From: a virus | Taxonomy: Duplodnaviria; Heunggongvirae; Uroviricota; Caudoviricetes | Reading direction: 5' to 3' (one strand) | IMG/VR virus record: IMGVR_UViG_2648501400_000015 | Length of the DNA: 6,501 nt | Notes under the pieces: model-generated | Database searches by the model: none | Seen by the model: the letters and a program-made list of their open reading frames with translations, nothing else | What the model was told of the DNA's origin: nothing | Part shown: piece by piece, positions 338-6,362 of the stretch | Numbering within the stretch: the stretch's first letter is position 1 | Layout: each line of letters starts with the position of its first letter | Position numbers and translations under genes: made by a program

Positions 338-413
338 TGGTGGCCCCTGCTGGACTTGAACCAGCGACCAAGCGATTATGAGTCGCTCGCTCTCACCACT
401 GAGCTAAAGGGCC
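338..413 (-). tRNA. tRNA-Ile (anticodon CAU, lysidine type, AUA decoder); nearly identical to E. coli ileX/ileY as I recall them, positioned like phage-borne ileZ
   Basis: Minus-strand sequence GGCCCTTTAGCTCAGTGGTGAGAGCGAGCGACTCATAATCGCTTGGTCGCTGGTTCAAGTCCAGCAGGGGCCACCA folds as a cloverleaf: 7-bp acceptor stem, D-arm, anticodon loop CUCAUAA (anticodon CAU), T-arm GGTTCAAGTCC, encoded CCA. A tRNA-Met identity cannot be excluded from the anticodon alone. Confidence 0.85.
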
Positions 414-576: not shown

Positions 577-626
577 AAAATATCAGATTTGCATGAAATA
601 TATGCCTTTCAATCTACTTTTGCAAC
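577..626 (-). promoter_or_regulatory. PR'-like late promoter with promoter-proximal pause-like element (candidate qut region)
   Basis: Minus strand: -35 TTGCAA (625..620), 17-bp spacer, -10 TATATT (602..597), immediately after the Q-like stop codon (609-611). The initial transcribed region contains an extended -10-like TGaTATTTT (586..577), the kind of element that causes the sigma-dependent pause used for Q loading in lambdoid phages. Motif reading only. Confidence 0.4.
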
Positions 627-1298
627 ACTTTGCTTTGAAAATGCCGCCTTTTGTTTTGAACGTGTTCTCATTACAAATAATAAAGCCTCACTATCCAGTC
701 GGTGAAAAATGTGTTTCATTGCAACCCAGTGACGAGTAAATGTTTTGGACCAGTTTTTAGTTGTCACTCCCGCCAGTAATGCCAGCTCCTGATATTCATA
801 ACCTTCCCCACCAAAAAGTTCTGCTTTTACTGCCTGCGCCGCCAGCCAGATTAATTTTTTCAGGCGTTCCTGCGTTTTCCCAGCAATTTTTCTGGTACCG
901 GATTGAGTATTAAATTCATTCCACGCCCACTGTGTTATCGCGATCTGATATTCCCAACAAATACTCCCGCTGTAACACCACAACAACCAGGCTTTATGAT
1001 GTTCTTCAAGAGACAGAACAGCCCGCCGCCACGATGATGTCAAAAACTCAACCGGACTGACGAGAGGAATTGACGCCCCCTTCGCCAGCGATTGCTTTCC
1101 CGGGATTGGTGGATTATCCCGCGTTATCATTTTTCCAGTCACTTCATCGCGGTACCGGATTTTTTTACGCCTGTAACGCCCTGTATCAAACATGGCATTC
1201 TCCTGCCAGGCCTCAAGCTGCCCTTTTGTTGATCCACTCAAATCGGCGGTGGCAATCATGAGTTGCTCACGAACAAACTGTAAATACTGGTTATTCAT
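609..1298 (-). CDS. late-gene antitermination protein Q-like (229 aa)
   Basis: Complete ORF whose ATG overlaps the rusA stop (ATGA). Assignment rests on context: directly downstream of rusA, followed by a promoter overlapping its 3' end, a short-transcript terminator and a tRNA, as in lambdoid Q-PR'-tR'-tRNA modules. Not confirmed by alignment. Confidence 0.6.
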   Translation of the reverse strand: MNNQYLQFVREQLMIATADLSGSTKGQLEAWQENAMFDTGRYRRKKIRYRDEVTGKMITRDNPPIPGKQSLAKGASIPLVSPVEFLTSSWRRAVLSLEEHHKAWLLWCYSGSICWEYQIAITQWAWNEFNTQSGTRKIAGKTQERLKKLIWLAAQAVKAELFGGEGYEYQELALLAGVTTKNWSKTFTRHWVAMKHIFHRLDSEALLFVMRTRSKQKAAFSKQSVAKVD

Positions 1299-1654
1299 GC
1301 ATACTCCAGTTCTGTGATTTTTATCCCCAACCGCCCACCAGGAACAAGCTGACCGCGCACAATATTAATTTCATCAAACTGCTCGTCGTCTATGAGCAGC
1401 CCCGCATGCGTCAGTACATCCAGTGGTGCCTTCAGGATATTGTCCAGGTCACGACGGCGCTTATCCGGTGGCTCTGCAATAATTTCTATTGCCGGCCTTC
1501 CGGACAGGTTTAATTTCAGTTGCTGCTGGCGAACAATAAGCGCCACATCACGGCGATAACGCTCACCGACTTTTGATACAAAATATGTGCTGCCACGGCG
1601 TCGCCAGTAAGTGTTCACCGTCGGCGGGTAAGGTAAAACCAAATCTATGAGCAT
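1295..1654 (-). CDS. rusA: RusA-family Holliday junction resolvase (119 aa)
   Basis: Protein contains PDKRRRDLDNILKAPLDVLTHAGLLIDDEQ, matching the RusA acidic catalytic signature (RRRDLDN ... DD) and length of about 120 aa. SD AGAGGTGA lies 5 nt upstream of the ATG; stop overlaps the Q start. Confidence 0.85.
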   Translation of the reverse strand: MLIDLVLPYPPTVNTYWRRRGSTYFVSKVGERYRRDVALIVRQQQLKLNLSGRPAIEIIAEPPDKRRRDLDNILKAPLDVLTHAGLLIDDEQFDEINIVRGQLVPGGRLGIKITELEYA

Positions 1655-1666
1655 CAGTCACCTCTT

Positions 1667-2716
1667 TTACCCAAGCACGCCAGTTGCAAAGGCGTGATCA
1701 AGAAAACGAAAAATTAAATCAACCTGAGAACCATGCTTTTCTTCGAACGCCAGCGGATCCGCATGAAGCTCGTTGTGATGCTCCCGACACAGCGGTAGCG
1801 TGAAAATATCGTGAGATTTTGTCCCCATTCCGCCCTGACCATGACCAATCAGGTGATGGGGATCGTCGGCTGGCTTACCACAACACGCACACGGCTGTGT
1901 CTTCACCCAGCGTGTGTATTTCTCGTTAACCCAGCGGCGACGTTTAGGTCGTTTCATGAAAGATTCCGGAGACTCAGGATCAACGGCAATGCTGACCACC
2001 GTCTTTTCCTGTGGTGGGTTCTGTTGCTGGTGGGCGTGAGGCAGCGGCGCAAGATTTTTTGTGCGCTGTTTCAGTATGCTGGTGGCGGTCTGCTCTCCCG
2101 GTACGATGTCGCTTTCACGGTACATTGAGCGAATTTTTTCCGCACGCAACCCCAGCGAACGACGTAATACCGCTTCCGGTAGCGCGTCCGCCACCTGATT
2201 GCGGACCGCCCACCAGGATAATTCAGCCAGCGATAATTCCCGTTCCTGCGAGCCATTCATTGCATGGCGTATGACGTCAATCATCCATGCAGACAGGTTT
2301 TGGTGAGCAAGTTGCCCGAGTGATTCGGAGGTCTGGTCGCGCAGCTGGTTGTCGCAGTGCCAGCACAACACCATTGCGCCGGTACCATAACGGTGAATGA
2401 CGGTTTCACTGTGGTGATAATCACCGTGTGGCCACTGGCAGGATTTAACATGGCGCAGTAACCAGTCAGACAATGCGCCAGCGCCACCAGCAGCACGAAT
2501 CACTCGTTCGTCGCTGAAAAATGGCAGTAATGATTTATCCTCCGCCAGCGGCTGGCGAACGGCAGGAACGACCCCGGACGGCAGATTACGCATGCTTTTC
2601 GGTTCCGGCTCCACCAGTACCCGGGTATTGTGGAATACCGGCATGGATTCACGGCCCGGCTTAACGATCACCAGCCCGAGTTCCGGTACCAGAACAGGTC
2701 GAAGTAATACCCGCAC
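1667..2716 (-). CDS. DUF968/YdfU-like prophage protein with C-terminal HNH-type Cys/His motif (349 aa)
   Basis: Long ORF starting at GTG 2716, preceded by strong SD GGAGG with 4-nt spacing. C-terminal region PCACCGKPADDPHHLIGHG...LPLCREHHNELH has HNH/zinc-finger-like spacing of Cys and His. Position between the small protein and rusA matches ydfU in Qin-type prophages as I recall them. Confidence 0.6.
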   Translation of the reverse strand: MRVLLRPVLVPELGLVIVKPGRESMPVFHNTRVLVEPEPKSMRNLPSGVVPAVRQPLAEDKSLLPFFSDERVIRAAGGAGALSDWLLRHVKSCQWPHGDYHHSETVIHRYGTGAMVLCWHCDNQLRDQTSESLGQLAHQNLSAWMIDVIRHAMNGSQERELSLAELSWWAVRNQVADALPEAVLRRSLGLRAEKIRSMYRESDIVPGEQTATSILKQRTKNLAPLPHAHQQQNPPQEKTVVSIAVDPESPESFMKRPKRRRWVNEKYTRWVKTQPCACCGKPADDPHHLIGHGQGGMGTKSHDIFTLPLCREHHNELHADPLAFEEKHGSQVDLIFRFLDHAFATGVLG

Positions 2717-2717
2717 G

Positions 2718-2996
2718 TTACCTCCAGATGCGTTGCTGGAATGTGCGGGACGGACGCGGTGGTCGTTCGGAGTAAGGAAGCCTGACGGAGATTATCCAGT
2801 GACGATAATCGAGGCTGAGGGCTTTCTTAATCTCGTATCCGTGTCTGCGGTAGCACTGAATTAGCCACTCGGCCTGTTCTTCAGTGCATGGGGGATGCTG
2901 GAACCAGTCAGATTTGAAAGTGCGGGAACGCCGCCCGTGCCTGCTGGCAAAGACGGCAGAATCATCAGAATTGTGTAATTTGGTATCGTGCGCCAT
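2718..2996 (-). CDS. small prophage protein of unknown function (92 aa; positional equivalent of rem in Qin-like prophages)
   Basis: ORF ending 1 nt before the DUF968 GTG start; its stop TAA lies between the SD and start of the downstream gene. Start set at the first ATG (2996) downstream of the hok terminator; the RBS is weak, so the start is uncertain. Confidence 0.45.
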   Translation of the reverse strand: MAHDTKLHNSDDSAVFASRHGRRSRTFKSDWFQHPPCTEEQAEWLIQCYRRHGYEIKKALSLDYRHWIISVRLPYSERPPRPSRTFQQRIWR

Positions 2997-3065
2997 CGGT
3001 TGTCTCTGCTGGCGCAGCAGGTGCCAGTTGTTCAGGCTGGCGTGCGAATTGTAAACCAGAATGCC

Positions 3066-3095
3066 AGGAAAAAACAAAACCCGCCGAAGCGGGTT
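3066..3095 (-). terminator. rho-independent terminator at the 3' end of the hok mRNA
   Basis: Minus-strand stem AACCCGC, loop TTCG, stem GCGGGTT (3095..3078), followed by TTTGTTTTTTCC. Lies about 70 nt downstream of the hok stop. Confidence 0.6.
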
Positions 3096-3163
3096 AAGTG
3101 CGGGTGCGTTGAGGATGCCTGACACATCAGAGGTGGCGAGGGATTTCTCCCCCGCCTGGTCTC

Positions 3164-3319
3164 TTACTCCTCAGGTTCGTAAGCTGTGAAGACAGCGACC
3201 TCCGTCTGGCCGGTTCGGATTCGTACCTCGCAGAGGTCTTTCCTCGTTACCAGTGCCGTCACTATGACGGTTAAACAGATGACGATCAGGGCGATTAACA
3301 TCGCCTTTTGCTGCTTCAT
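3164..3319 (-). CDS. hokD: Hok/Gef-family type I toxin (51 aa), sequence as I recall HokD/RelF
   Basis: Translation MKQQKAMLIALIVICLTVIVTALVTRKDLCEVRIRTGQTEVAVFTAYEPEE: single transmembrane helix plus conserved RKDLCEV motif typical of Hok/Gef. SD AAGGAGAAG precedes the ATG at 3319. An in-frame upstream ATG at 3376 would give a 70-codon ORF. Confidence 0.9.
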   Translation of the reverse strand: MKQQKAMLIALIVICLTVIVTALVTRKDLCEVRIRTGQTEVAVFTAYEPEE

Positions 3320-3367
3320 AGCCTGCTTCTCCTTGCCTTTCGGCACGTAAGAGGCTAACCTACGTGT

Positions 3368-3440
3368 GTAGAGCATAGATATGGCCTCAGATTAATGTTA
3401 AGCGTCTTGCCGGACGCGTAATGTTAACTGGGGCTTTTCT
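3368..3440 (+). ncRNA. candidate Sok-like antisense RNA (approximate coordinates)
   Basis: Plus-strand promoter-like element inside the hok leader: TTGCCT (3333-3338), 17-bp spacer, TAACCT (3356-3361). A transcript from about 3368 would be antisense to the upstream ATG/SD region of the hok leader, as Sok is in plasmid R1 hok/sok. The 3' end is not defined. Confidence 0.3.
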
Positions 3441-3495
3441 CTATCTGCCTTTTGGTGTTCATGCCTGAGACAGATAGCCTCAAGCACCCGCAGTC

Positions 3496-3524
3496 ATTCT
3501 ACCCGTTTTAGATTTCTCAGCCAA
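3496..3524 (-). promoter_or_regulatory. predicted hok mRNA promoter
   Basis: Minus strand: -35 TTGGCT (3524..3519), 17-bp spacer, -10 TAGAAT (3501..3496). Predicted start near 3489 gives a 5' end GGGTGCTTGAGGCT..., resembling the hok mRNA 5' end of plasmid R1 as I recall it. Confidence 0.45.
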
Positions 3525-3665
3525 CTTTATGCTCACAACATATACAAATTTCCCGGTTAAAGCTCATCATGTTAGATAGTTTTTGCGTACGCACTATTTT
3601 TTTATGTAAACTGCGCAAAAAAGTTTAGCACCCTAAATTGTTAAGGGAAAATTAAGGAAGTGTTA

Positions 3666-4757
3666 ATGCTTGAGCAAACAGTAAAAAACATCAATTCACG
3701 CTTTGGCTGGCGCAACACCCGTAAGCTTCTTGGTTCATCACTGGGTGTAACGGCCCAAGGATTACCCCTTTTTATTGAACGTGTAAATAGTGTAGTTCAG
3801 CATAATCCCGACCTAAAAGACAGAATCGACGATTTCTGGAAAGGTTTAATTTTTAGCGGGAATCGATTACTTTCTATTTATAGAATCACCGATGAAGACG
3901 TAGCAAAATTACAAACAATTTTCACAAATCAGAAAAAGGACAATAGCCCCTTCTCAGAAAAATACCCAACTCCTTTATCCAGAGAGGAGCTGTTAGTTGC
4001 TGATACTGAGCTGCATTTTGCTGAACTACGTCAAGATATCATTCGTGATAAACAAATTGACACTGCTGTTTTTTTATCCAAAGCGTATTACACTGAAGTG
4101 ATAGAGCTTGACCCAACACATCTTAGCGATGCGGGTATGGAATTACGTGCTAATGGTGGAGAAATAAAATGCAAAACACGCCAAGTCACGCAATGCTTTA
4201 ATACCATCATGCTAATGCCTGCAGAAAAAATATTAATTCTTACGATTGATTTATCTATCCTTCCAAGAAGTGAATCACAGCCTCAACAATACCTTGTGGC
4301 TAAATTTATAAAAAAAGAAGCTGGCGTTATTTTAAACAATCCTCTTGAATTATTTGGTTCAATACAAGATCTTTACGAAAAAGTAGATGGCAGAATTTCT
4401 CATGTATCTTTTATCACCTCAGATGGCAATACAAGTTCTTTAAAACTCAAACCAAGTCAAAAGTGTTTGCGTCAAGATGTTTACCATCATAGTGGAGAGT
4501 CCGCAAGCCCAATATTGACAAAGTTTAAGTTGGGAAAAATTTGGGATTTACCACAAAGTTCTTCACATATTTTATCAGTAGAGTTAATATTACCAGGAAA
4601 AAGGACAATGCTTGATAATCCTAGAATTAGGTTGCATGAAGCAATTGCGAAGAACTGTAACAACATTGATTCGATTATATTTATTGTTGAAAAAATATTG
4701 GATTCTGTTAAGTCCTGTGAAGAGAAAAGAAGAGCGAGATCATCAGGCCATAAATGA
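3666..4757 (+). CDS. hypothetical protein, gene 1 of AT-rich three-gene operon (363 aa)
   Basis: ATG at 3666 preceded by SD AAGGAAG (3654-3660); the ORF track start at 3660 is a GTG placed too close to the SD. No Walker or other motif recognised. Stop TGA overlaps the next start (ATGA). Confidence 0.75.
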   Translation: MLEQTVKNINSRFGWRNTRKLLGSSLGVTAQGLPLFIERVNSVVQHNPDLKDRIDDFWKGLIFSGNRLLSIYRITDEDVAKLQTIFTNQKKDNSPFSEKYPTPLSREELLVADTELHFAELRQDIIRDKQIDTAVFLSKAYYTEVIELDPTHLSDAGMELRANGGEIKCKTRQVTQCFNTIMLMPAEKILILTIDLSILPRSESQPQQYLVAKFIKKEAGVILNNPLELFGSIQDLYEKVDGRISHVSFITSDGNTSSLKLKPSQKCLRQDVYHHSGESASPILTKFKLGKIWDLPQSSSHILSVELILPGKRTMLDNPRIRLHEAIAKNCNNIDSIIFIVEKILDSVKSCEEKRRARSSGHK

Positions 4758-5182
4758 AAAAGAGTATATATCACGACATTATCACGCAAATAGAGCAGGA
4801 TTTTAATGATCCTGTTCGCAGTGTGTGTCGTGATCTTTTTCTTTTTCTGGTTAGTAAAGATGCTAAAAATATCAATCACTTTACATACAAAACCCTTATC
4901 AATGGTTTAACCTATCTAACTGATACGAAAGATGACTATATCCTGCTAATAAAAGCAACTGATTATTTATCTAGCTATAAAGCACATCTATTGGATATGC
5001 ATTTTCAATACATTGATAATTTAACGGAAGAACCAATACCAGTTGAAGATGATCTTATTTCCTATGCTTTAGACACAGGAAGTTTTTACCATCCAGAAAC
5101 TGGCGAATTGGTTGATAATTTTAGCCAGTATCTTTATCCATACTTTACTCCTTCGAGTCTTTTGGAGAGTCTGCATGAGTGA
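4754..5182 (+). CDS. hypothetical protein, gene 2 of operon (142 aa, acidic C-terminal half)
   Basis: ATG 4754-4756 overlaps the gene 1 stop (4755-4757) with no independent strong SD, suggesting translational coupling. No motif recognised. Confidence 0.7.
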   Translation: MKKSIYHDIITQIEQDFNDPVRSVCRDLFLFLVSKDAKNINHFTYKTLINGLTYLTDTKDDYILLIKATDYLSSYKAHLLDMHFQYIDNLTEEPIPVEDDLISYALDTGSFYHPETGELVDNFSQYLYPYFTPSSLLESLHE

Positions 5183-5816
5183 TGTAAACATCTGTACTGC
5201 AGACCTTCAATCATTAATTAGAATGGATCCTGAATTTAGGGGAATGGTTCAAAGAAAATTAGCTGCAGACAAAAATATTTTTGTAAAGCAACTCTATGAA
5301 GATTTAGACGACGCTATTCAGAATTTAGAAAATGACAAACACTTCTATCAAGATGCTAAGTGGGGAGAGGACGAGCTAACAGCGTCGATCAAAAATTTCC
5401 TGAAAGGTAGGTTTTATGATGTTGAACATGATACTCAACATGGCGGTCACGTTGATTTATTAGTTAAACATCAATTCGGAAAATTCGAATGGATCGGTGA
5501 AGCAAAATTATGGAGAGGCCCCAAATCTATTCATAATGGCTGGATTCAGCTAACCGAACGTTACGGCACGGGTACGTCACGTGACGATCATGGAGGAATT
5601 CTAATTTATATAAAGTCTGACAAATCAGCAGTAAAATTCAATGAATGGAAAGAATTTTTCTCTACGACCGTTTCGGACGCAGAAATTGAAGCGGAAGGCT
5701 CTCCCCTCCGCTTTAAGAGTATCACAAAGCATCCAGCAACAGCGCTTCCATATCATGTAAGACACATGGGAGTATCCTTATACCATTACACTGGTAAAAA
5801 AACCGCTGACTCTTAA
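5175..5816 (+). CDS. hypothetical protein with PD-(D/E)xK-like motif, putative nuclease; gene 3 of operon (213 aa)
   Basis: Start chosen at ATG 5175 (MSDVNICTADL...), preceded by SD GGAGAG 5 nt upstream and overlapping the gene 2 stop by 8 nt. Motif GHVDLLV-x14-EWIGEAK (D94 ... E109-A-K111) fits the restriction-endonuclease-like core D...(D/E)xK after hydrophobic strands. Confidence 0.7.
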   Translation: MSDVNICTADLQSLIRMDPEFRGMVQRKLAADKNIFVKQLYEDLDDAIQNLENDKHFYQDAKWGEDELTASIKNFLKGRFYDVEHDTQHGGHVDLLVKHQFGKFEWIGEAKLWRGPKSIHNGWIQLTERYGTGTSRDDHGGILIYIKSDKSAVKFNEWKEFFSTTVSDAEIEAEGSPLRFKSITKHPATALPYHVRHMGVSLYHYTGKKTADS

Positions 5817-6334
5817 CTGGTAATTGCTATATATCCAGTCAAAAAACCTAAGGCTTTTTGCAATCTTTTACGAATTGTTCCATCTGAACATCCTTGTTGC
5901 TTTGCAATAGCACGAAGAGATAAACCAATCACGAAATGAGCAACAATTAACTCATATTCTTGTTGCTTATATCTTTCTAACCTAAGGATACTAATGTCAA
6001 TAATTCGCCCTTCATCATTGCTGCACTGACGACGTGATTTTTTACCATGAGGAACAACATTTTTATATTTATCAGCTATTTCCTGCCAATCAATAGAACT
6101 ATTACCAGCCACAACCCAAGCCCCCCAATCGTCTAAAATCTCACATATATCAACATTACTATCCATCTGTTTTTTATTTTCTATTTTGAAATAACCAAGC
6201 AGCATTCTAGCCATTGTTGTTATTTCTATACTTGTAACTGACTCATAAGCATGAGGAGAAACAATTCTCTCATCACTTAATGCCCAATCACTAAGGTTTG
6301 CTATTTCCAACAATCGTTCTTTAGTTATTCCCAT
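5813..6334 (-). CDS. hypothetical regulator with C-terminal sigma-70 region-4-like HTH (173 aa)
   Basis: ATG at 6334 preceded by SD GGAG with 6-nt spacing; the ORF track start at 6346 is GTG. C-terminal ELIVAHFVIGLSLRAIAKQQGCSDGTIRKRLQKAL matches the region-4/LuxR-type HTH pattern. AT-rich like the operon; convergent with gene 3 and overlapping it at the stop codons. Confidence 0.65.
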   Translation of the reverse strand: MGITKERLLEIANLSDWALSDERIVSPHAYESVTSIEITTMARMLLGYFKIENKKQMDSNVDICEILDDWGAWVVAGNSSIDWQEIADKYKNVVPHGKKSRRQCSNDEGRIIDISILRLERYKQQEYELIVAHFVIGLSLRAIAKQQGCSDGTIRKRLQKALGFLTGYIAITS

Positions 6335-6346
6335 TATTATCTCCAC

Positions 6347-6362
6347 CGCCCTTTCGGGCGGC
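6347..6362. other. GC-rich hairpin immediately upstream of the regulator gene RBS
   Basis: CCGCCC-TTTC-GGGCGG (perfect 6-bp GC stem, 4-nt loop) in an otherwise AT-rich stretch. No clear U-tract on either strand, so role is unclear (attenuator, processing site or island boundary). Confidence 0.3.

Follow-up and report, generated by a model that had tools for sequence, protein, structure and literature searches.

What does a small gene lying in an AT-rich island of a lambdoid prophage encode, and what could its product control? The stretch analysed here, a window of 6,501 nucleotides (IMG/VR record IMGVR_UViG_2648501400_000015), is identical to part of the lambdoid prophage adjoining ompW in enteropathogenic Escherichia coli (EPEC) O127:H6 E2348/69. 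It contains, at 5813-6334 on the minus strand, an open reading frame (ORF) that a sequence-only reading had taken for a sigma-70 region-4-like helix-turn-helix (HTH) protein, probably arrived with a neighbouring AT-rich cassette and perhaps regulating it, or acting as a small phage transcription activator. The protein is a member of the phage 21 Q (Q21)-type antiterminator family (PF06530), a kind already known and so named in RefSeq. It belongs to a long form of this family, in which an additional N-terminal module precedes the Q domain:

5813-6334, minus strand: coding sequence of the long-form Q-family protein, 173 aa (WP_000513135.1; PF06530, 9.4e-32; phrog_79, 1.8e-34)
5816-6148, minus strand: Q domain (Phage_antitermQ), residues 63-173, homologous to phage 21 Q by profile and structure matches
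5840-5926, minus strand: helix-turn-helix, residues ~137-165, SLRAIAKQQG-CSDG-TIRKRLQKALGF (sub-threshold Sigma70_r4/r4_2 and HTH matches; helices of the AlphaFold2 (AF2) model)
6149-6334, minus strand: N-terminal extension, residues 1-62, an orphan module of the long form (phrog_3323, 9e-15)

The ORF starts with an ATG at 6334 and stops with a TAA at 5815-5813, an alternative GTG at 6346 giving a 177-aa form. The coding sequence E2348C_RS07430/WP_000513135.1, annotated by the Prokaryotic Genome Annotation Pipeline (PGAP), coincides exactly with it and bears the RefSeq name 'antiterminator Q family protein'. DNA matches to the gene are found in 44 of 5426 complete E. coli genomes. Among its relatives, the ratio of nonsynonymous to synonymous divergence (dN/dS) is 0.12-0.33 at dS up to 1.4, indicating that the ORF is maintained by selection. 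Because of this ratio and of the PF06530 score, the ORF is a real gene and more than a chance ORF, as the sequence-only reading had supposed.

In Pfam, PF06530 is matched with 109.9 bits for a cut-off of 26, over residues 66-175 of the 177-aa form and profile positions 3-112 of 118, and the PHROGs family matched, phrog_79, is described as 'anti-termination protein Q-like'. The only significant relatives of solved structure are phage 21 Q (6JNX, 6P18), detected by phmmer (E 6e-4) and by a family profile (E 1.5e-5). Q21 has the fold of region 4 (R4) of an extracytoplasmic function (ECF) sigma factor with an anti-sigma-like helix, and its HTH reads a Q-binding element (QBE) (10.1101/651190; PMC6606751), situated in the spacer of the late promoter PR' (PMC6606751). 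When the AF2 model was searched with Foldseek, the top three PDB matches were all Q21, with a probability of 0.89-0.91 for the first two; this model is poor, being derived from a shallow 50-sequence alignment (mean predicted local distance difference test, pLDDT, of 56), and the fold search is thus weakly informative. The helices of the HTH (124-147 and 151-172) are modelled at pLDDT 72-86.

The alignment with Q21 places W73/V74 at W26/V27 (beta' dock contact), I86/K89 at V39/K42 (helix forming the ring in the RNA exit channel) and S139/R141 at S93/H95 (DNA contacts), the ring segments being one residue apart in length. Conservation extends to W73, V74 and K89, at the dock and the ring, and W73, S139, G152, R155 and K156 are invariant across 50 homologues. 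The likeness to Q21 (PDB 6P18-6P1C, 6JNX/6JNY) therefore comprises PF06530 membership, homology over residues 66-145, the sigma-R4-like body and the C-terminal HTH. The two proteins nevertheless share only ~20-25% identity, the HT[loop]H of Q21 includes a long loop where a short canonical turn is found here, and the long form is longer by 62 residues at its N-terminus.

A C-terminal HTH of sigma-R4 type, proposed from the peptide GLSLRAIAKQQGCSDGTIRKRLQKAL (residues 137-162), is thus borne out by region 4 matches, although sub-threshold, and by the sigma-R4-like fold of the Q21 family. The preceding 130 residues had been considered unassigned; this applies in fact to residues 1-62 only, residues ~63-173 being the Q domain. 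The profile searches that the same reading had proposed, against sigma-70 region 4, LuxR and late-activator families, returned nothing above threshold, and PF06530 came out instead. Sigma70_r4_2 reaches 24.8 bits for a cut-off of 25.7, Sigma70_r4 19.8 for 24.1 and Sigma70_ECF 14.9 for 21.1 (Pfam), and the ECF sigma superfamily model TIGR02937 (NCBIfam) 33.5 for 42.9, over region 4 only. No sigma region 2 is matched in Pfam or NCBIfam, and no LuxR/GerE or late-activator family at E <= 0.1 in Pfam or at E <= 0.01 in PHROGs and NCBIfam; a PADLOC search gave a weak match to the HTH of Mad1 (0.0065). The protein resembles ECF sigma region 4 (Sigma70_r4_2, TIGR02937) by its HTH pattern and, via Q21, by its fold, but, lacking region 2, it cannot act as a sigma factor. 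As only sub-threshold region-4 matches were obtained, its identification as a sigma factor, a LuxR-type protein or a late activator was rejected.

The homologues fall into two groups. Long forms of 170-185 aa, found in E. coli and Salmonella, share 64-96% identity and possess the N-terminal extension. Short forms of 113-120 aa are widespread in Enterobacteriaceae and are 55-63% identical over the Q domain. The extension matches, by residues 4-67, phrog_3323, a family of unknown function, and its AF2 pLDDT is below 50. In an exhaustive search of 1.84 billion representative proteins, it was found in only 5 clusters, four of which are long-form genes or truncated copies. The fifth (P0124, 193 aa, L187 6001-6582) shares only a module of ~45 residues, with 58% identity, and matches no Pfam family; its host is an unrelated virulent-type phage encoding a single-subunit RNA polymerase. 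The module is a small shuffled one. The possibility that the extension is a fused upstream ORF was rejected, as the ORF upstream of the Q gene of phage Stx1_499 does not align with it. A tblastn search with residues 1-64 against all retrieved loci found nothing outside long-form genes, and no free-standing ORF upstream of short-form Q.

A candidate target for the Q domain was found by comparing the intergenic DNA located beyond the cassettes:

3666-5816, plus strand: convergent AT-rich three-gene cassette (365, 142 and 197 aa; phrog_12777, phrog_11490 and phrog_9664), between the Q gene and the candidate site
3581-3592, minus strand: 12-mer GCGTACGCAAAA, candidate Q-binding element from its sequence conservation, with a 10-bp palindrome TGCGTACGCA at 3584-3593

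In the first four loci (L001-L004), one of which has an unrelated cassette, the 12-mer is present beyond the cassette as a single copy on the strand of Q, and seven loci retrieved by protein identity alone (L104-L110) have the same single Q-strand copy. A raw viral scan for the motif, as a 14-mer, gave 99 loci, which is about chance level; only the subset bearing a Q gene was used, and the association was re-tested on protein-chosen loci. Among 80 viral contigs chosen by protein similarity only, 76 contain one copy, 979-2649 bp past the Q stop, and none was found on the other strand. Three of the remaining four contigs end too soon, and the last one (L177) has only 1557 bp downstream. The association between the motif and Q is thus strict. 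It extends to cassette-free phages, in which the final 30 nt of the Q gene contain the 12-mer. As it is present in such phages and beside unrelated cassettes, the motif was rejected as a cassette-specific operator.

Between cassette types, the flanks of the 12-mer cannot be aligned on either side. Such an island of identity would be the signature of a protein-binding site, not of a recombination joint, and a recombination junction is unlikely since the flanks differ on both sides. In all long-form loci, a conserved T lengthens the palindrome to 10 bp.

The short-form loci indicate which role this site could play. There, a -10 (TATCGT), a leader (TTAAGAGTGGTTACTTCGCCAC...) and an intrinsic terminator come after the 12-mer, always in the same register. 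The same leader and terminator occur in several hundred records of 933W-type Shiga toxin (Stx) phages, where they stand directly downstream of Q. What comes after the unit is S, R and Rz in Shigella phage SfII and stx1AB in Stx1_499; because of these genes, and as the short-form Q is the sole Q of both phages, the unit is the late promoter PR' and its terminator, with the 12-mer in the promoter spacer. Like the long form, the short-form Q of SfII, Stx1_499 and enterobacterial prophages has a near-identical HTH, the 12-mer downstream and a convergent variable cassette in the gap. Unlike it, it has no extension, is the only Q of its phage, and its motif is followed by the -10, the leader, the terminator and the lysis or stx genes.

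A related arrangement is seen in the 933W-type phage P13374 (L188, ~686-699; one record inspected), where a 14-bp perfect palindrome, TTTACGATCGTAAA, occupies the same register, 16 nt before AAGAGTGG. TTTACGATCGTAAA differs from GCGTACGC by symmetric substitutions, the 933W counterpart of GCGTACGC being ACGATCGT. Being located in the PR' spacer of a 933W-type Stx2a phage, TTTACGATCGTAAA is a candidate QBE for the Q933 type. The 933W-type Stx2 Q and QuuD of DLP12 are, like the long form, PF06530 proteins (~37% identity) with a palindrome and an A-tract in the same register, and the 933W-type PR' leader and terminator are homologous to the short-form units; the 933W type differs by its palindrome, TTTACGATCGTAAA, by having no cassette between Q and PR', and by its lack of extension. 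The QBE of Q21 consists, in contrast, of two TGAGCA direct repeats, where the candidate site here is a palindrome with an A-tract, and the Q21 gene abuts PR' while the long-form gene lies 2.2 kb from the candidate site and is not the late switch. From all these comparisons, the 12-mer appears as the best QBE candidate for this Q clade. Neither the 12-mer nor a hotspot between Q and PR' turned up in the literature that could be searched, such an absence being no proof of novelty.

The surroundings of the site in the window comprise two putative start points of opposite direction, a toxin-antitoxin locus and a terminator:

3583-3612, plus strand: predicted cassette promoter, from its geometry, with -35 TTGCGT (3583-3588, inside the motif), an 18-nt spacer and -10 TAAACT (3607-3612)
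3569-3574, minus strand: -10-like TAACAT, 6 nt past the motif, homologous by sequence comparison to the TAACCT/TATCGT -10 of short-form PR'
3164-3524, minus strand: hokD/sok type I toxin-antitoxin locus (Rfam sok, 117 bits at 3314-3489; Hok/Gef Pfam match), with hok promoter TTGGCT-17-TAGAAT (3524-3496)
3078-3095, minus strand: intrinsic terminator AACCCGC-TTCG-GCGGGTT (hairpin and T-run), between hokD and a 92-aa ORF (nin-like genes)

On the cassette strand, the motif reads TTTTGCGTACGC. A TAnnnT hexamer follows its TTGCGT by 17-18 bp in 15 of 19 sequence classes, for 1.6 expected (binomial P 2e-13), and is missing in both cassette-free classes. Because of this spacing, and of its loss where there is no cassette, the candidate Q site would double as the -35 of the cassette promoter. 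A leader of ~50 nt separates TAAACT from the cassette ATG at 3666. The region 3540-3665, which the sequence-only reading had named as a promoter region to be tested, does contain the candidate site overlapping this -35; control of the cassette is plausible.

On the other strand, TAACAT could be the start of a rightward, Q-modifiable transcription. It is separated from the hok promoter by ~45 nt of unique sequence, and hok/sok, which in long-form loci is always present after the cassette and the motif, takes the place of the canonical PR' leader. The terminator at 3095-3078 is the first good one, 486 nt past the motif, and is included in the mechanical ORF 2718-3125 (annotated form 2719-2997). 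It recurs 460-620 nt past the motif in other long-form loci (L112, L122, L131, L104, L108). The leader at 3490-3580 and the region upstream of the Q gene do not fold better than shuffled sequence, and only sok and a tRNA were found in Rfam near the Q gene and the 12-mer.

The gene order of E2348/69 recurs in all the other long-form loci that were examined: cro-like/YdaS, YdaT, replication genes, DUF977 and the long-form Q, then the opposite-strand cassette, hok/sok, nin-like genes (DUF968 with or without RusA, or DUF1367/YbcO), a second Q, holin and lysis genes. Which family the second Q belongs to varies among these loci (PF06323 here, lambda-type PF03589 or DUF1133). In the window, the Qin-like nin/late-control region is as follows:

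1667-2716, minus strand: DUF968/HNH-like protein
1295-1654, minus strand: RusA
609-1298, minus strand: second Q gene, in canonical position upstream of tRNAs and lysis genes (PF06323, 3.5e-91)
341-413, minus strand: tRNA

Our preferred reading, to which we would give a little less than an even chance, is that the long form is still a Q-type factor, which binds the 12-mer, antiterminates towards the second Q and silences the cassette during lytic growth. Judging from its place at the end of the early-right (replication) operon, the protein would be made after induction. The N-terminal half of its Q domain would engage RNA polymerase, and its C-terminal half, the sigma-R4-like HTH, would recognise (T)GCGTACGCAAAA at 3581-3592, 2.2 kb downstream and past the convergent cassette. 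The bound protein might then be loaded onto RNA polymerase starting at the adjacent minus-strand promoter, and the modified transcription could continue beyond the hok terminator (3095-3078) and reach DUF968, rusA and the second Q. Starting antitermination from this site would bypass the cassette, which would block read-through from the early promoter. At the same time, the bound protein would cover the TTGCGT -35 of the divergent cassette promoter and keep the cassette off during lytic growth. In the short-form relatives, the outcome would be the classical one, loading at PR' and read-through of tR'.

Several of our results speak against this reading. The canonical PR' leader and its proximal terminator are absent from long-form loci, where the Q-strand -10 is weak and variably spaced, and the invariance of the motif in these loci could partly reflect its role in the cassette promoter. 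With a separate late Q 4.5 kb downstream of its gene, the long form is not needed as a late switch; in all long-form loci, it is neither adjacent to the late operon nor the sole late switch. The long form is constrained 3-6 times less tightly than short-form Q: dN/dS is 0.18 for its RNA polymerase-engaging half and 0.22 for its HTH half, against 0.03 and 0.06 for short-form Q. The equivalent of the ring helix is consistently changed in the long form (AAGFKG -> ADKYKN), and the AF2 model, with its mean pLDDT of 56, is poor.

These observations leave room for a second explanation, which we consider doubtful, though not negligible. The long form could be a repurposed Q, which has lost antitermination and binds the palindrome over the cassette -35 as a repressor or as a sigma-R4-like activator, the second Q alone running the late switch. 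The promoter geometry in the direction of the cassette is indeed kept (window, L122, L002, L132), whereas neither the PR' leader nor the proximal terminator remains, the conserved T gives a 10-bp palindrome in all long-form loci, where the second Q is always present, and the cassette -35, TTGCGT, has 3/6 consensus positions, typical of factor-dependent promoters. The relaxed constraint and the altered equivalent of the ring helix point in the same direction, and the added N-terminal module could supply dimerisation. Such a loss of antitermination fits less well, however, with an RNA polymerase-engaging half as constrained as the HTH half (0.18 vs 0.22), with the conservation of W73, V74 and K89, with the -10-like hexamer homologous to the PR' -10 of relatives that is kept in the window, and with a conserved terminator still standing between the site and the downstream genes.

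The history of the gene bears on a third explanation, namely that the long form is an evolutionary leftover, a chimeric remnant of a Q-PR' module without any role here, the motif persisting only as a cassette -35. Long-form genes of different cassette types show a synonymous divergence of 0.03-0.36 over the extension and of 0.5-1.4 over the Q domain, and the Q domain is the more similar part of two copies that have the same cassette. Because of this contrast, and of the similarity of Q domains under the same cassette, we read the gene as a mosaic, whose 5' part travels with the prophage backbone and whose 3' part, encoding the Q domain, travels with the cassette module. A leftover would agree with this mosaic structure (5' part dS 0.03-0.36, 3' part up to 1.4), with the truncated or frameshifted copies that were found (P0121-P0123, L033, L083), with a dN/dS above that of short forms and with the rarity of the gene (44/5426 genomes). 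It is nevertheless improbable: the 170-185-aa ORF is intact in E. coli and Salmonella, at 64-96% identity and with a dN/dS of ~0.2 at dS >1, the residues of the HTH are nearly invariant, the 5' leader and Shine-Dalgarno sequence are conserved, and a mere -35 hexamer would not keep 12/12 bases invariant over 19 classes.

Finally, a small sigma-70 region-4/LuxR-like activator, arrived with the AT-rich cassette and acting by classical promoter activation on cassette or phage genes, is very improbable: the sub-threshold region 4 matches, the shared low G+C, the covariation of the 3' part of the gene with the cassette and the adjacency, in Stx1_499 also, of the Q gene and a distantly homologous three-gene cassette would suit it, but the sigma and HTH families stay below their thresholds whereas PF06530 exceeds its own fourfold, neither region 2 nor GerE/LuxR is matched, the same gene stands beside unrelated cassettes, and the protein is most closely related to genuine late-gene Q proteins.

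The idea that the gene came with the cassette, and that it is a phage transcription activator, is thus only partly retained. The low G+C is shared as described (34.5% for the Q gene and 34-39% for the cassette, for 43-55% in flanking prophage genes), and the 3' part of the gene does co-vary with cassette type, but the position of the gene is fixed beside at least four different cassettes and its 5' part follows the backbone. The protein does belong to a family of phage transcription regulators, but no sigma, LuxR or late-activator family reaches threshold. In Rac/Qin-like prophages the gene is part of the conserved backbone, and what varies is the cassette.

The upstream region of the gene shows a further conserved structure:

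6341-6361, minus strand: Shine-Dalgarno sequence GGAG (6344-6341) and upstream GNRA-loop hairpin CCGCCC-GAAA-GGGCGG (6361-6346), kept in 8 long-form loci

Among these eight loci, the hairpin shows wobble changes; it has no T-run, hence it is no obvious terminator, and no Rfam match. It is preceded by TCCTTAAC, which has a faint resemblance to the boxA/boxB of nut sites.

As to the cassettes, the proteins of the one present in the window have no Pfam, NCBIfam or convincing PADLOC match. The third contains H-V-D-L-L-V ... G-E-A-K, a putative PD-(D/E)xK nuclease motif recognised by eye. A distant homologue of this cassette (23-33% identity, same order) adjoins the Q gene of the Stx1a phage Stx1_499, and its type is also found in STEC367. 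Isolate 362 and Salmonella have a cassette encoding an NA37-like protein and a 400-490-aa protein, another E. coli cassette encodes DUF6731 and a 159-aa protein, and one more class gives a match to PDC-M53, a PADLOC candidate; at least four different cassettes are thus exchanged beside the long form while the position of the gene stays fixed. In the viral loci (L111-L185), at least 17 classes of gap, of 1-2.6 kb, separate the Q stop from the 12-mer, with their main ORFs on the opposite strand and a G+C of 31-40%. When 10 representative cassette classes were compared with PADLOC, one matched PD-Lambda-5_A (3.9e-24) and one PDC-M53A (2.4e-21), the other eight having no match; cassettes elsewhere carry NA37, DUF6731 or an ion-channel-like domain. 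The cassette is swappable, and its role is probably anti-phage. Insertion sequences (IS) of the IS4 family (IS421, ISEc13) are found in nin/late-control regions (L003 3049-4161, in STEC367, and L001 12848-14221), and given such insertions the E2348/69 prophage may be defective for late gene expression.

A reverse-oriented defence gene inside a Q-controlled operon is known in phi80 (TaiEcA/AtiEcA; PMC11364771). As in phi80, a reverse defence-type gene would here be part of a Q-dependent unit, the lytic programme being expected to silence or neutralise it; unlike in phi80, where the gene is downstream of the late promoter, the cassettes lie here between the Q gene and the promoter, and the candidate Q site would be their -35. 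One broader possibility, which we put forward as speculative and rather unlikely as a whole, is that the gap between Q and QBE is a dedicated hotspot across the enterobacterial lambdoid clade, where at least 17 reverse cassettes, mostly unknown and some of known defence type, would use the QBE as -35, so that Q would, upon induction, automatically turn the cassette off (or on). The long form would then be a Q placed on a foreign N-terminal module and kept mainly for switching the cassette in this way, or else as an additional level of a cascade of two Q proteins.

While the gene itself is known in kind, its long-form, displaced, two-Q arrangement, with a shared Q site and -35, would be new. 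Our results provide a candidate QBE, GCGTACGCAAAA, for a large uncharacterised Q clade including Stx1 phages and Shigella phage SfII, and the co-varying palindrome of the 933W type bears on the control of Stx2 toxin expression. The putative hotspot for anti-phage cassettes between the Q gene and its candidate target, previously unremarked, would be a practical place to mine for new defence systems. With the cassette -35 being the candidate Q site, an induced prophage could also have a simple means of silencing the defence cassette that it carries. Finally, prophages with two Q genes point to a possible Q cascade, which could substitute for N-type early antitermination in Rac/Qin-like phages.

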